A model generated the notes under the pieces. That model saw only the letters and a program-made list of their open reading frames with translations. It made no database searches and had not been told where the DNA came from. A stretch of 64,000 bases of DNA. Source: Enterobacteria phage vB_EcoM_IME540. The position numbers and the translations under genes were made by a program. The DNA is taken from sequence record MT150133.1. One strand, 5' to 3'. Numbering within the stretch: the stretch's first letter is position 1; each line of letters starts with the position of its first letter. Shown here one piece after another: positions 8,796-17,970 of this stretch.

Positions 8796-9461
8796 TCAAA
8801 ATTTTATTTTACGGCCTTTATTCCAACCTTCAGGAATAATATCCGTTTTGTTAATACGTTTAGAAACTTTTTCTTCTAAAGAATGAATCCACATTTTTCC
8901 ATATCCGGAATTATTTTCACCTTGTTGGTGTTTATTTCTGGCGTGAGATTCTTTCATTTTATTTTTGGTTTCATCTGAATGGGTCTTACCCAAGAAAGAT
9001 TTAGTATTTGAAAATTTCTCTCTATACTTAGGATTATCCCAAAGTTGTTTAAACCTTTCCGAACCCATTTTACGATATTTTTCTTTAAGGTCTGGGTCGT
9101 TCTCAAATCTGGTTTTAAAAGCGGCAACTCCTTTTAAGGAAGCTTCTTTCTTTTTATCTAAATATTCTTCAGTGTTTAAATGGTCCCAACCACCTTCACC
9201 ACCTAATTTCAAATTATAAACATCAGGGCGCTTTAAAAACTCTTCAGTCACAATATTCTTTTCTGACTCAAACATAGAGGTTTTATCGTCAAAGAACTCT
9301 AATATTTCTTTAGAGAAATTTTCTATACCGTATTTGACCTGGGCCCTTTTTAAGAGTTTACCAGAACCAAAATATGCATCATTCAAATTTTCGGTTGAAT
9401 GGGCGCCTATATAGATTTTATTATTAATTTTGTTTGTTATTTTATAAGTGTAATGGAACAT
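8796..9461 (-). CDS. segB: GIY-YIG homing endonuclease, segB-like, inside the tRNA cluster
   Basis: 221 aa; N-terminal YKITNKINNKIYIGAHST...GSGK motif; basic NUMOD-like C-terminus; RBS AGGAGA; same position as T4 segB. Confidence 0.8.
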   Translation of the reverse strand: MFHYTYKITNKINNKIYIGAHSTENLNDAYFGSGKLLKRAQVKYGIENFSKEILEFFDDKTSMFESEKNIVTEEFLKRPDVYNLKLGGEGGWDHLNTEEYLDKKKEASLKGVAAFKTRFENDPDLKEKYRKMGSERFKQLWDNPKYREKFSNTKSFLGKTHSDETKNKMKESHARNKHQQGENNSGYGKMWIHSLEEKVSKRINKTDIIPEGWNKGRKIKF

Positions 9462-13674: not shown

Positions 13675-14511
13675 TTAAGAATTCTTCCATACTTTCTGAG
13701 CTGAGTAACGCTTACCTTTCGATACAAATTGCTGAAGCGGTAATCCTATTACATTAGCCCAATCAGACGGTTTTATCTCTACTAAAGGTCCCTTGATATT
13801 TCCAGGGATATAAGCTTTAATCATCACGTCGGCGCCAGCGAATCCTTTTACCTTACTCCAATCGATTTTTAATTTAGTCGAGTTCGTAATGGTAGGCGTA
13901 CTCGCGTATTGCTTCAGCAATTCTTCCAGAAATTGTTGACGTGCTTTAGGTGGAATATAGTGTAAGTTCAGTCCGTACATTAAATTATGCTTACCTAACC
14001 CAAGATAAATTATTAAAGGATATTTGTCCCAGTATGGTAGGGTATCCTTATGTTTGGCATCATAGATATAAGCATAAAGCTTACCAGGAGACGGTTTAGA
14101 TACCTGGTGTCCACGAATTCCTTTCTTTAATGTTTCTGTAAACCATTTAGCTGATTTATTGTTTATGGCAGCGCCTTCGTTAGCAATCTTATCGCGAATA
14201 CTCTTTCTAAAACTATTCACCAAAATTAATTGACGTTCTGCTTTGGTTAATTTATTGCCAGGTTTCTTCTGAAGTTTTTCAACCTGTACAGCAGTTTTAA
14301 TTCGACTCGAGTATCGAGACATCGCAGATGTAAAGCTAGAATACTTGATGCCTTTATCTTCAGCGAATTTCTTAGCCGAAACACCTTTAGCCTTAGCGTT
14401 GGCATATTCAACGCCTAAAGTTATCCATTGTTGTTCTGAACGAGTAGGCTTGGAACCTTTTGTAGTTTCAGTAGCCTCGTTGATGTAAGAAAATATACTC
14501 ATCCTTTCCAT
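13675..14511 (-). CDS. 2: gp2 DNA end-protector protein
   Basis: 278 aa, basic; order 4-2-3-1 and size match T4 gp2. Confidence 0.8.
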
Positions 14512-14948
14512 CCTAATTTTTTCAGTGAGTTTTCGGTAATCAATCTGAAATTAATTCCCATTTTATCTGCTGTAGCTTTAGCAGCTTTCCATTTATCTTT
14601 ATTTACACTCCATGTATAATGTTCGTTGATATATCTCTTTTTAGCAGCTGTAGTCATTTTAGCAGGCGCCGCTGGAGGATGGGTCTCTTTAAAAGGTTTG
14701 ACTTCGAAAAAGAATTGTTGACCATTGTCGAACTTCACCCAGAAGTCCATAAAATACCGACGTTTCTTTCCATCAGCGTTACTAAAATATGGAATCACAA
14801 CCTCTTCCGAGTTCCACTGGACGACATTAGGATGGTTATCAAGCCAACGCATAAGCCATGCTTCCCAAGAGGAACGATATTGGATTTTCTTCCAATCACC
14901 TTTATATTTTTGTAAGTTTGTAGGTTTAAATTTCCCTGAGTAGGCCAT
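14499..14948 (-). CDS. 4: gp4 head completion protein
   Basis: 149 aa [29 protein letters not shown]..., matches T4 gp4. Confidence 0.85.
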
Positions 14949-14958
14949 AGTGCCTCCT

Positions 14959-14966
14959 TATAAATA
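14959..14966 (+). promoter_or_regulatory. late promoter TATAAATA for gene 53
   Basis: Exact T4 late consensus 28 nt upstream of ATG 14994. Confidence 0.6.
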
Positions 14967-14993: not shown

Positions 14994-15596
14994 ATGCTCT
15001 TCTCATTTTTCGATCCCATCGATTACGAATCAAAAACAGTCAAGCCAGATTCCGGCTCATTAACTGATGCCGATGTACTGAGCGTACCGATGACTGATAT
15101 ATTTAGAAACTATAAAGAATATTTTGATAAAGTGGCTAAAAATTATACACTTAAAACATATTATATCAGTGGGGCCCCTCGTCCAGAAGAATTAGCCCAT
15201 CAACTTTATGGTAACGTGCAATTATATTGGGTCCTTTTAATGTGTAACAATATCTATGACCCTTATTACGGCTGGATTACAGGCCAAGAATCTGCGTATC
15301 AAGCAGCTATTCAACGTTATGCTACTGCAGGCGGAAACCAAGTCCTTTATCATGTCAATGAAAAGGGTGAGAAATTCTGGAATCTAGTAAATACTCCGGA
15401 AAATCCTTATACTTGGTACGATAAAGGTGATACAGAAAAACGTTATCCTCAATATGAAGGTCCTTTGGCTGCAGTAGATATTTACGAGGACGCCATTCGT
15501 AAAAATGAATATAAGCGCGAAATAAAGATTATAGACCCTAATGACATCGAGTCCTTTGTTTCCGCTTTAATTAGAGAAATGGAGAAGTCACTCTAA
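14994..15596 (+). CDS. 53: baseplate wedge protein gp53
   Basis: 200 aa MLFSFFDPIDYESKTV...PMTDIFRNYKEYF...YWVLLMCNNIYDPYYGWIT, matches T4 gp53. Confidence 0.85.
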   Translation: MLFSFFDPIDYESKTVKPDSGSLTDADVLSVPMTDIFRNYKEYFDKVAKNYTLKTYYISGAPRPEELAHQLYGNVQLYWVLLMCNNIYDPYYGWITGQESAYQAAIQRYATAGGNQVLYHVNEKGEKFWNLVNTPENPYTWYDKGDTEKRYPQYEGPLAAVDIYEDAIRKNEYKREIKIIDPNDIESFVSALIREMEKSL

Positions 15597-16231
15597 TGTT
15601 TTATTACGTCTATAAAATAACCAATATAATTAATGGTAAATTTTATATCGGTGCTCATAGTACATCAAATATGGATGACGGTTATATGGGCTCAGGTAAA
15701 TTAATTAAACGCGCTATACTAAAATATGGCATTGAAAATTTCAAAAAAGAAATATTAAAATTTGTTGATTCTAAAAAAGAAATGTATGAACTCGAAAAAG
15801 AACTTGTTGTCCTTACTGAAAATTCATACAATTTAAAACCGGGCGGTTCCGGTGGGTTTTTAAAACATGATAACTTTAAAGGCAGGTCCCATAGTCAGAA
15901 AACCAAAGATATTATGAGCGCTAATAACTCAGGCAAAAACAATCCTATGTATGGTAGAAAACGAGACCAACACGGAGAAAAAGCACCTAATTATGGTAAA
16001 AAGTGCTCTGAGGCTAAAAGAAAATTACTTTCTGAAAAATCTAAATCCTATTTTGAAAACCTTCAAACCATAACTAAAAATCTCGGCTTTGGTCCTACAT
16101 CGGTTGAAACTAGATATGTATCAAGACATATTAAAAAGCTAGGATTAGATTTTTATAAATTTAATCGTGATATAACAGAAACTAATGTTTCCATAGTTAG
16201 AAATATTTTAGAACAAAGGAAAGCGCTATGA
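15596..16231 (+). CDS. GIY-YIG homing endonuclease (seg-like) inserted between genes 53 and 5
   Basis: 211 aa; N-terminus MFYYVYKITNIINGKFYIGAHST...GSGK is a close paralog of the segB-like protein; ATGA overlap with gene 5. Confidence 0.8.
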   Translation: MFYYVYKITNIINGKFYIGAHSTSNMDDGYMGSGKLIKRAILKYGIENFKKEILKFVDSKKEMYELEKELVVLTENSYNLKPGGSGGFLKHDNFKGRSHSQKTKDIMSANNSGKNNPMYGRKRDQHGEKAPNYGKKCSEAKRKLLSEKSKSYFENLQTITKNLGFGPTSVETRYVSRHIKKLGLDFYKFNRDITETNVSIVRNILEQRKAL

Positions 16232-17970
16232 TTAACATGTCTGATAATGTAAGTTGGTTCGTCGGTGTGGTTGAAGACCGTATGGACCCACTCCAACAAG
16301 GACGCGTTCGAGTTCGTGTCTGGGGCCTGCATCCTTACGAAAAGGTCCAAGGTCCTGTAAAAGGCCTTCGTACAGAGGATTTACCGTGGATGTCCGTATT
16401 AATGCCTACATCTTCTGCCTCTGTTTCTGGTATCCAAACCGCTATGACTGGTATGGTTCCAGGTACTCAGGTTTATGGGCACTTTCTTGATAAGTGGAAA
16501 TTAAACGGGCTTGTCCTCGGTACATATGGTTCCGCTTCAAGACAAAAGGCTAATCCTAATGAAGGTTTTAGTGACCCGACAGGTCAATACCCACTTTATT
16601 TGGGTAATGATGCTGCAGCACTAAACCGAGGTGGTGAAGTTGGATACGATGCCACTTCTAACGTAATACAAGATGCAAACACCGATGTAGGTATTAACCC
16701 AGACGGTTTGGATTTGAGCCAAGTCAAGCCTGATGATAATCCTAATTTCACAATAGAAAACATGCTTCATCGTGATGAAGGGCTTAGACTGAAGGTATAT
16801 TGGGATACCGAAGGTTATCCTACTATAGGTATAGGCCACCTTATCACACCACAACCTATTAGAGATATGAATCGAATAAACAAAATATTATCTAATCAGG
16901 TAGGACGAGAAGTTAAAGGTAACCCTGGTGCAATATCAATGGATGAGGCTTCTAAATTATTCCAAGAAGACCTTAAAAAAGTCCAAAACGATATAGGTCG
17001 GCATAGTGTTGTAGGTCCTGTTTACAATAAAGAAAACCGTTCAAGACAAATGGCTCTTGAAAACATGGCTTTCCAAATGGGATTAGGTGGATTGGCTAAA
17101 TTCCGTGGAATGCTTAGTGCAATGCTAATAGGCGATTATAAAAAGGCATTTGAGGAAGCTCGTAATTCAGTATGGTTTAACCAAACTAAAGGTCGCGCAT
17201 CAAGGGTGTCAATGATTATCCTCACAGGTAACATGGAATCATATGGTATTATGGCCCCTAAAGAAAGGTCATTTAATGGCCGTTCGTATAGAATGATTCA
17301 AACCTTTGTGGCCCCTACAAATTCAGACCCTGCCGACCCGTGGACTCCAGAAGACACAAGGATTCTTTTTAAAGAACCTGATTCTAGTTATAAAGGCGAA
17401 TATCCATATGTCCAAACCATGCAAACTGAAGGCGGGCATATCCAAGAATTCGATAATACCCCAGGGCAAGAACGATACCGTTTAATCCATCCTACCGGTA
17501 GTTATGAAGAAGTTGCTCCTGACGGACGTAAAACTTCTAAGACGGTAGCCGATGGTTATTATATGACCCAAGGCGATTCAAATACTTATGTTGGTGGTAA
17601 TAATAAGGTCAATATAGGCGGCGATGAAACCTATTATAATATGGCAAACGTTCGTCGTCAAACTGACGGGTCTGAAAGCATCCATATTCGTGGTAATGAA
17701 ACTAAAACAGTAGAAGGTGACGGAACCCTTATTGTTAAAGGAAACGTAACAATTCTTGTCGAGGGTAGTGCTGATATAACTGTTAAGGGCGATGCTAAAA
17801 CATTAGTTGAAGGCAATCATGACTATACCGTAAATGGAAACGTTAAATGGTCTGTAAATGGAAACGTTGATATGACTGTTGCAGGTAATTGGTCTGAAAC
17901 TATGTCAACTATGAGTTCTATTGCATCAGGTCAATATACTATTGATGGTTCGAGGATTGACATTGGCTAA
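16228..17970 (+). CDS. 5: baseplate central spike gp5 with lysozyme domain
   Basis: 580 aa; lysozyme segment GYPTIGIGHLI...; C-terminal VxGxxxV beta-helix repeats. Confidence 0.9.
   Translation: MINMSDNVSWFVGVVEDRMDPLQQGRVRVRVWGLHPYEKVQGPVKGLRTEDLPWMSVLMPTSSASVSGIQTAMTGMVPGTQVYGHFLDKWKLNGLVLGTYGSASRQKANPNEGFSDPTGQYPLYLGNDAAALNRGGEVGYDATSNVIQDANTDVGINPDGLDLSQVKPDDNPNFTIENMLHRDEGLRLKVYWDTEGYPTIGIGHLITPQPIRDMNRINKILSNQVGREVKGNPGAISMDEASKLFQEDLKKVQNDIGRHSVVGPVYNKENRSRQMALENMAFQMGLGGLAKFRGMLSAMLIGDYKKAFEEARNSVWFNQTKGRASRVSMIILTGNMESYGIMAPKERSFNGRSYRMIQTFVAPTNSDPADPWTPEDTRILFKEPDSSYKGEYPYVQTMQTEGGHIQEFDNTPGQERYRLIHPTGSYEEVAPDGRKTSKTVADGYYMTQGDSNTYVGGNNKVNIGGDETYYNMANVRRQTDGSESIHIRGNETKTVEGDGTLIVKGNVTILVEGSADITVKGDAKTLVEGNHDYTVNGNVKWSVNGNVDMTVAGNWSETMSTMSSIASGQYTIDGSRIDIG

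Follow-up and report, generated by a model that had tools for sequence, protein, structure and literature searches.

A probable free-standing Seg-type GIY-YIG homing endonuclease gene at the gene 53/gene 5 junction of Dhakaviruses

The 64,000-nt stretch of DNA analysed here (the window; sequence record MT150133.1, Enterobacteria phage vB_EcoM_IME540) is part of the genome of a Dhakavirus, i.e., a JS98-like, T4-like coliphage. Between its baseplate genes 53 and 5 lies an open reading frame (ORF) which is very likely a free-standing homing endonuclease gene (HEG) of the Seg-type GIY-YIG class. In every property that can be judged from sequence it qualifies as a member of this class, and it is an uncharacterised newcomer to an otherwise well-known group, with cleavage as its predicted activity. 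The ORF is annotated as 'hypothetical protein' in all GenBank records of carriers seen, and literature searches found no description of it. The gene, its parts and its flanks are the following.

15596-16231 (+), homing endonuclease ORF, 211 aa (ORF list, Pfam, PHROG)
15596-15865 (+), GIY-YIG catalytic domain, residues 1-90 (Pfam, alignment, AlphaFold (AF2) model, Foldseek)
15881-16045 (+), NUMOD3 motif region, residues 96-150 (Pfam)
16034-16228 (+), C-terminal tail, residues 147-211 (start approximate), predicted helical
14994-15596 (+), gp53 baseplate wedge gene, upstream flank (Pfam Phage_gp53, 8e-73)
16228-17970 (+), gp5 baseplate hub/tail lysozyme gene, downstream flank (Gp5_OB, 4e-61)

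The ORF itself, the Pfam, PHROG and fold matches and the assignment of the flanking genes all agree with the original prediction of a 211-aa GIY-YIG endonuclease between genes 53 and 5. Residues 3-79 match the Pfam GIY-YIG family (PF01541) with 25.6 bits against a curated cut-off of 22.6, and the protein matches PHROG 314 'homing endonuclease' with an E of 3.5e-49. The conserved Tyr/Tyr/Glu/Asn set of GIY-YIG enzymes is present (Y6, Y17, E67 and N79), and these four residues together with G19, H21 and K35 are invariant in 25 aligned Seg-like proteins. In the AF2 model the predicted local distance difference test score (pLDDT) exceeds 90 over residues 1-80, and the top PDB matches of the model in Foldseek are the I-TevI catalytic domain structures 1MK0/1LN0 (probability 1.0, template modelling (TM) score 0.57-0.65 on the target). 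When the whole protein was searched by sequence against the PDB, nothing matched. A strong NUMOD3 motif was detected by Pfam at residues 96-125 (E 1.6e-11), with a second, weaker stretch in the same region. The HEG exactly fills the gp53/gp5 junction and lies outside any intron, and an Rfam scan of the region found no group I intron or other RNA family at E <= 1. The intron-encoded (I-TevI type) class was rejected, as the insertion consists of the ORF without extra RNA and no Rfam intron was detected.

The HEG is sporadic among close relatives at an otherwise conserved locus. Over the surrounding 2 kb, identity is 98.3% with Escherichia phage vB_EcoM_FB, and many other Dhakaviruses reach 90-96%. 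The original prediction had named a gene shared by all relatives at this position as a finding that would speak against it; when the junction was compared, 5 of the 78 related phage records matching the region carried the HEG, whereas in the other 73 the two baseplate genes overlapped at a clean junction without it. A query based on a Gaprivervirus returned the same five carriers among 102 records. These are the Dhakaviruses FB and KIT01 and the Gapriverviruses P479, PSD2001 and P896, and in all of them the gene is located at the 53/5 junction. In addition, nine contigs derived from the Sequence Read Archive (SRA) encode the exact HEG protein of the window, each between genes 53 and 5, and the carrier sequences number 16 (the window, the five isolates and ten SRA contigs). 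Just two clusters span the full length of the HEG in a collection of 5.8 billion proteins. All five carrier isolates (MT682711, AP019521, MW269952, OK254198, OL451225) originate from Asian poultry or duck settings (poultry farms; soil of a chicken farm, Viet Nam; poultry sewage, chicken feces and duck sewage, China), which suggests that the HEG has spread inside one ecological pool of co-infecting phages.

Two alleles of the HEG were found, one in the window and FB and the other in KIT01 and P479, with 88% protein identity and 73-90% DNA identity (200-nt windows) between them. The KIT01/P479 allele is identical over nt 1-626 in KIT01, a Dhakavirus, and in the Gapriverviruses P479 and PSD2001, while P896 differs at nt 525; the other differences among these four copies are confined to nt 627, 630 and 631. 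Between KIT01 and P479/PSD2001/P896 the HEG body is thus 99-100% identical, whereas the gp4, gp53 and gp5 flanks are 67-81% identical. The window allele is identical at 632 of 632 positions in eight SRA contigs whose gp53 and gp5 are 90-100% and 90.5-96.6% identical to the window, respectively. The tracts shared together with the HEG are short. KIT01 gp53 carries Gaprivervirus-type variants from 15563 to the junction (34 nt) and lacks the Gaprivervirus-specific variants at 15515-15558, and in PSD2001 the left shared tract is at most ~21 nt. On the right side, gp5 of the Gaprivervirus carriers matches local endonuclease-free relatives from the first polymorphic site on, with P479 resembling RZ and DK13 and P896 resembling SP18. 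On the left (gp53) side the conserved mobile unit extends no further than ~20-40 nt, and on the right 0-10 nt. As shown by comparison of these sequences, the HEG has recently moved between genomes, including across the two genera Dhakavirus and Gaprivervirus.

The same comparison shows the HEG to be under strong purifying selection. Between the two alleles the rate of synonymous substitutions (dS) is 0.90 and that of nonsynonymous substitutions (dN) 0.076, and the ratio dN/dS is 0.08 for the whole protein, 0.03 for the nuclease domain and 0.15 for the tail. Since the copies are sporadic, incongruent with their flanks and identical in divergent backgrounds, with tiny tracts and purifying selection, the pattern is the sequence signature expected of a homing endonuclease gene that is active, or was until very recently, and whose co-conversion tracts are very short.

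How the cassette is fitted into the junction could be read by comparison with empty sites. Genes 53 and 5 are adjacent in T4, as stated in the original prediction, and they overlap there as well. In endonuclease-free Dhakaviruses the junction reads ...CTCTAATGATTAAC, and in PSD9, JS98 and IME08 ...GAGAAAGCCCTCTAATGATTAACATG...; here the stop of gp53 overlaps the start of gp5 by one base (TAATG), whereas the overlap of the empty site is ATGA in Gapriverviruses. The junction of carriers is ...CTCTAATG[TTTT...GCGCT]ATGATTAAC, which in the window is ...GAGAAGTCACTCTAATG[TTTTAT...AAGGAAAGCGCT]ATGATTAACATG.... The cassette is therefore a 632-nt insertion made up of the ORF alone, with zero non-coding DNA and no promoter. 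Its ATG overlaps the gp53 stop by one base (TAATG), and its TGA stop overlaps the gp5 ATG (CTATGA). The following short elements are involved.

15581-15598 (+), left junction, GGAGAAGTCACTCTAATG
16216-16231 (+), right junction, AAGGAAAGCGCTATGA
14959-14966 (+), T4-type late promoter motif, TATAAATA, exact motif, upstream of gene 53

The GGAG at 15581-15584 is the Shine-Dalgarno sequence for gp5 in endonuclease-free genomes and for the HEG in the window, and AAGTCA/CTCTAA at the left junction replaces the final gp53 codons and stop. Inside the 3' end of the HEG, AAGGA (16216-16220) forms a new Shine-Dalgarno sequence 7 nt 5' of the gp5 ATG. By comparison of occupied and empty sites, the cassette is shown to be arranged for translational coupling to gp53 and to supply gp5 with a new ribosome-binding site. 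Promoter-less, translationally coupled seg cassettes and co-conversion are known from T4 (PMC2988022). The motif at 14959 is the sole exact late motif available for transcribing the cassette, and matches to sigma-70-like promoters occurred at chance-level counts. RNA structures masking the start sites, as in some T4 endonucleases, were not found (z-scores -0.4 and +0.4). The GC content of the HEG is 30% versus 38% for gp53 and 41% for gp5.

Two further signals within the ORF were considered and set aside. A late-like TATAAATT at 16154-16161 (+), near the 3' end of the HEG in the window/FB allele, is not a conserved feature, as it is missing in the KIT01/P479 allele; it could raise transcription of gene 5 in the window/FB lineage. 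A terminator-like hairpin at 15838-15853, in the sequence ACCGGGCGGTTCCGGT followed by GGGTTTTT (15838-15862, +), is probably fortuitous because it is encoded by the Gly-rich PGGSGGF codons and is weaker in the other allele. If the hairpin at 15838-15862 works, less transcription would read through to gene 5.

The 3' end of the HEG resembles the end of gene 53. In endonuclease-free Gapriverviruses the native gp53 ends in K-(A/S)-L-stop over the gp5 ATG, and its last two sense codons vary between strains:

RZ, native gp53: GCA TTA TGA
DK13 and MN01, native gp53: TCA TTA TGA
M719, native gp53: GCG CTA TGA
SP18, native gp53: GCT TTA TGA

In the window, HEG codons 209-211 are AAA GCG CTA (K-A-L) followed by the stop, and mimic this native Gaprivervirus gp53 end. 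Apart from nt 525 of P896, variation in the otherwise identical allele is confined to the two final sense codons of the HEG:

P479, HEG: GCA TTA, matching RZ, the closest relative of P479
P896, HEG: GCT TTA, matching SP18
PSD2001, HEG: GCT CTA, matching no sampled native end
Window, FB and KIT01, HEG: GCG CTA, matching M719

At the left junction all carriers read AAG-(G/T)CA-CTC-TAATG, that is native-looking K-(A/S) codons and then a Dhakavirus-type end. When the final 27 nt of gp53 and of the HEG were compared, 15 were identical in frame (IREMEKSL-stop versus ILEQRKAL-stop), more than in any of 764 in-frame control comparisons (maximum 13). From their sequence, the last three HEG codons (K-A-L-stop) seem to have originated as the end of gene 53. 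In the simplest reading the cassette would have entered a Gaprivervirus-type gp53 six nt before the stop (AAG KCA ^ TTA TGA), bringing a substitute CTC TAA for gp53, and the HEG frame would have been completed on the original end of the host gene. Such an insertion would keep the gp5 initiation region and yield an imperfect 12-nt direct repeat flanking the element.

The C-terminal tail of the HEG is presumed to be the target-recognition module. The W-x-x-N...G-W/Y-x-K-G-R motif, which ends most Seg-like homologues including T4 SegC and the SegB orthologue of the window described below, is missing from the HEG in the alignment. Pfam gave nothing meaningful for the tail at E <= 10, a phmmer search against 1.84 billion representative proteins detected no homologue, and there were no phage matches to the tail outside the five orthologues. 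A DNA pattern common to both tail alleles had no match in IMG/VR, the JGI metagenomes and the GTDB genomes, and an IMG/VR protein search with the C-terminal half of the HEG returned generic NUMOD3 endonucleases with other tails only. In a single-sequence model the tail forms four helices with a pLDDT of 78.7.

We propose the following course of homing. Late transcription of the HEG would start at the late promoter that precedes gene 53 and would include genes 53 and 5 as well; HEG translation would be coupled to termination of gp53. In a mixed infection with an endonuclease-free relative the NUMOD3 motifs and the helical C-terminal tail would recognise the intact 53/5 junction, and the flexibly tethered GIY-YIG domain would cut within a few tens of nt of it. 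A cut at so small a distance, more likely on the gp53 side, is suggested by the very short left tract and the lack of a right tract. The cassette would be copied over when the break is repaired from the HEG-carrying genome. In carriers the 632 bp insertion keeps the two halves of the site apart, which would make them immune.

Several points count against this explanation. The counterpart of I-TevI R27 in the HEG is ambiguous, R39 being variable within the family and K35 invariant. The tail has low confidence in the full-length model, and its fold matches are weak. In phage FB one additional A in an A5 run (window 16076-16080) shifts the frame of the HEG and leads to the 170-aa product of the GenBank annotation, which reflects either decay of the gene or a homopolymer sequencing error. 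In KIT01 the body of the HEG is of the Gaprivervirus type and its last 10 nt (AAAGCGCTA) are of the Dhakavirus type; for this reason the ancestor of KIT01 may already have carried the HEG, its allele having been swapped by ordinary homologous recombination and not by homing into an empty site. Finally, the mechanism (cleavage, target site and homing) is deduced wholly from comparative sequence.

The FB frameshift could also be taken as a sign that the gene is an inactive remnant, or has been domesticated and is kept for the gp5 ribosome-binding site, for exclusion of competitors or for stimulation of recombination. The presumed dependence of gp5 translation on the AAGGA within the HEG 3' end fits this idea, as does the beneficial role in amplification of anti-defence loci that a recent paper ascribes to SegB (PMC13096335). 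However, the low dN/dS, which is lowest in the nuclease domain, and the intact active-site residues speak against it, and the fact that identical copies spread very recently speaks for activity. A beneficial side-role would also be compatible with homing. We therefore regard a remnant or domesticated gene as improbable.

It is similarly improbable that the HEG was ancestral at the 53/5 junction of Dhaka- and Gapriverviruses and was precisely deleted in most lineages. The occupation of the same site in two genera and the existence of two alleles with a dS of ~0.9, i.e., of an old family, would agree with such a history. However, ancestral presence with repeated loss is insufficient because it leaves unexplained the identical copies, namely the 626-nt body shared across genera with strongly diverged flanks and the window allele found unchanged in backgrounds up to 10% divergent. 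The empty junctions are, moreover, clean and genus-specific. Loss is surely also part of the usual life cycle of HEGs, yet it cannot explain the observed patterns.

Outside the 53/5 element the window contains a second gene of this kind, whose existence had been correctly predicted.

8796-9461 (-), SegB orthologue, 221 aa, between tRNA-Arg and tRNA-Met

Its residues 19-221 are 74% identical to the T4 segB locus, and because of this identity and its location in the tRNA cluster the gene is, on sequence grounds, a true SegB orthologue. The similarity to SegB is full-length and includes the C-terminal W..N...GW.KGR motif. Placing the HEG in the same orthologue group was rejected, as it is sited at 53/5, its similarity is confined to residues 1-92 and the C-terminal motif is absent. 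The first ~45 residues of both proteins had been described as nearly identical, but only 32 of 45 (71%) are the same, with 67% identity at the DNA level. BLASTP gave 61% identity over 92 aa. Identity at third codon positions is 49% (saturated), the longest shared DNA word is 12 nt, and only 26 of the 48 identical residues share a codon. For the HEG nuclease domain, identity is 65-70% to SegB-like genes of Acinetobacter phages, 65% to T4-type segB and up to 73% to metagenomic proteins. The claimed difference in the C-terminal domain holds for the last ~65 residues, although both proteins carry NUMOD3. Similarly, the picture of a shared nuclease with swapped tails is right in that both belong to the same SegB-like clade and end differently, but the recent duplication and retargeting read from it do not agree with the saturated synonymous sites. 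Its SegB orthology being genuine, the gene at 8796-9461 must have split from the 53/5 gene before Tequatrovirus and Dhakavirus diverged. A recent intragenomic duplication, in which the segB-like gene was copied to 53/5 and received a new DNA-binding tail, would account for the common SegB-clade GIY-YIG domain and NUMOD3 but can practically be dismissed in view of the saturated synonymous sites, the short common DNA words, the SegB orthology, the closer nuclease domains in other phages and metagenomes (65-73%) than in the genomic neighbour, and the presence of the same 53/5 gene in another genus.

To our knowledge, only a handful of free-standing homing endonucleases of T4-like phages have been characterised, all from T4. 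The nuclease domain of the HEG is closest to the SegB clade (~65% to T4-type segB), and like SegB the HEG has NUMOD3 and is free-standing and sporadic. SegB differs by its tRNA-cluster site and its W-x-x-N motif, in place of which the HEG has the 53/5 site and a helical tail without homologues. SegC is the T4 match with the longest coverage of the HEG (45% over residues 2-145) and is likewise a promoter-less cassette that overlaps the upstream ORF on a late structural-gene transcript (PMC2988022). However, it is sited between 5.1 and 5.4, ~2 kb downstream of gene 5, it has another C-terminal domain, and its nuclease domain is less similar to the HEG than that of SegB. With I-TevI from the T4 td intron the HEG shares the catalytic fold and the order of nuclease, extended linker with NUMOD3-type elements and small helical C-terminal domain, and the short co-conversion tracts suggest that the HEG, like I-TevI, may cleave near its insertion site. 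In contrast to I-TevI it lies outside an intron, and there is no sequence similarity beyond the nuclease domain. Enzymes of the SegF/SegG/MobE type cut hundreds of base pairs from their own genes and give long co-conversion tracts. The tracts of the HEG are only tens of nt long, unlike those of SegF and SegG, and thus nearer to the behaviour of I-TevI. In mixed infections the HEG would be expected to act as SegF, SegG and MobE do, cutting the allele that lacks the endonuclease, which is then converted from the carrier genome (PMC2988022).

Some additional observations concern the surroundings of the HEG. Of 12 Dhakavirus carriers, 9 have a C at gp5 nt 24 (window 16251), and all 8 non-carriers lack it; the carriers without it are the window, FB and L101. 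A role of this base in immunity was rejected since the window itself does not have it; it may be a remnant of the donor flank or a site-protecting change. The other gp5 site listed is window 16266 (gp5 nt 39). In the 5' third of gene 5 (16269-16730) the window is 8-11% diverged from PSD9, otherwise its closest endonuclease-free relative, whereas on the gp53 side the two are 100% identical until the final 9 nt. The 16269-16730 patch is only partly present in FB, so that there is mosaicism beside the HEG. Beyond the 3' part of gene 5 (window ~17730, FB locus ~5700 on) FB diverges sharply from the window (45-59% aligned identity), and its annotation has a longer gp5 and a different downstream gene, which could reflect an indel, a rearrangement or an assembly difference. 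One contig (L095, Logan SRR32022449, 1049 nt) combines a Dhakavirus-type gp53 and window-type left junction with an HEG body 97% like KIT01/P479 and with a right junction and gp5 start of the Gaprivervirus type. Either crossovers inside the HEG produced a natural recombinant, or the assembly is chimeric.

The gp3-gp2-gp4 interval is a second insertion hotspot nearby, and none of its inserts is present in the window. P479 and PSD2001 have annotated homing endonucleases between gp4 and gp2, and P479 has another between gp2 and gp3. RZ carries a 729-nt hypothetical gene between gp4 and gp2, and two SRA contigs carry a 216-aa gene between gp3 and gp2. The gp4 gene of the window (head completion protein, 14499-14948, -) matches the Pfam TnsA-like endonuclease N-terminal domain with an E of 2.9e-24. 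Inserts of this interval are located in the sequences compared as follows.

L003: 462-1121 and 1942-2589
L007: 1943-2590
L009: 1862-2590
L096/L099: 429-1079

A more specific interpretation of the 53/5 gene, which we put forward as a tentative possibility only, is that it represents a distinct Seg lineage, which would use its homologue-less tail for targeting, cut within a few tens of nt of its insertion point, as I-TevI does but as a free-standing enzyme, and form an in-frame gene 53 cassette that brings substitute codons for gene 53, ends on the K-A-L-stop of the host and rebuilds the gp5 ribosome-binding site. If this were true, it would be a mobile element made of an ORF alone, adapted to a junction with translational coupling and now crossing two genera in poultry-associated E. 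coli phages. For specialists the interest lies in an ORF-only cassette at an overlapping junction, tracts of tens of nt, a cross-genus transfer almost caught in the act and a tail without homologues. The natural data are unusually clean, with two alleles, 16 carriers, many empty sites in two genera and tract ends resolvable to a few nt. The HEG is thus a possible model for how an ORF-only cassette can enter a junction of overlapping genes without disturbing expression of essential baseplate genes, and its tail is predicted to equip a GIY-YIG nuclease with a new module for DNA recognition. In T4-like phages, marker exclusion and the boundaries of recombination are shaped by free-standing homing endonucleases, and in phage-therapy cocktails that mix Dhaka- and Gapriverviruses the 53/5 junction would be a predictable site of gene conversion between phages.

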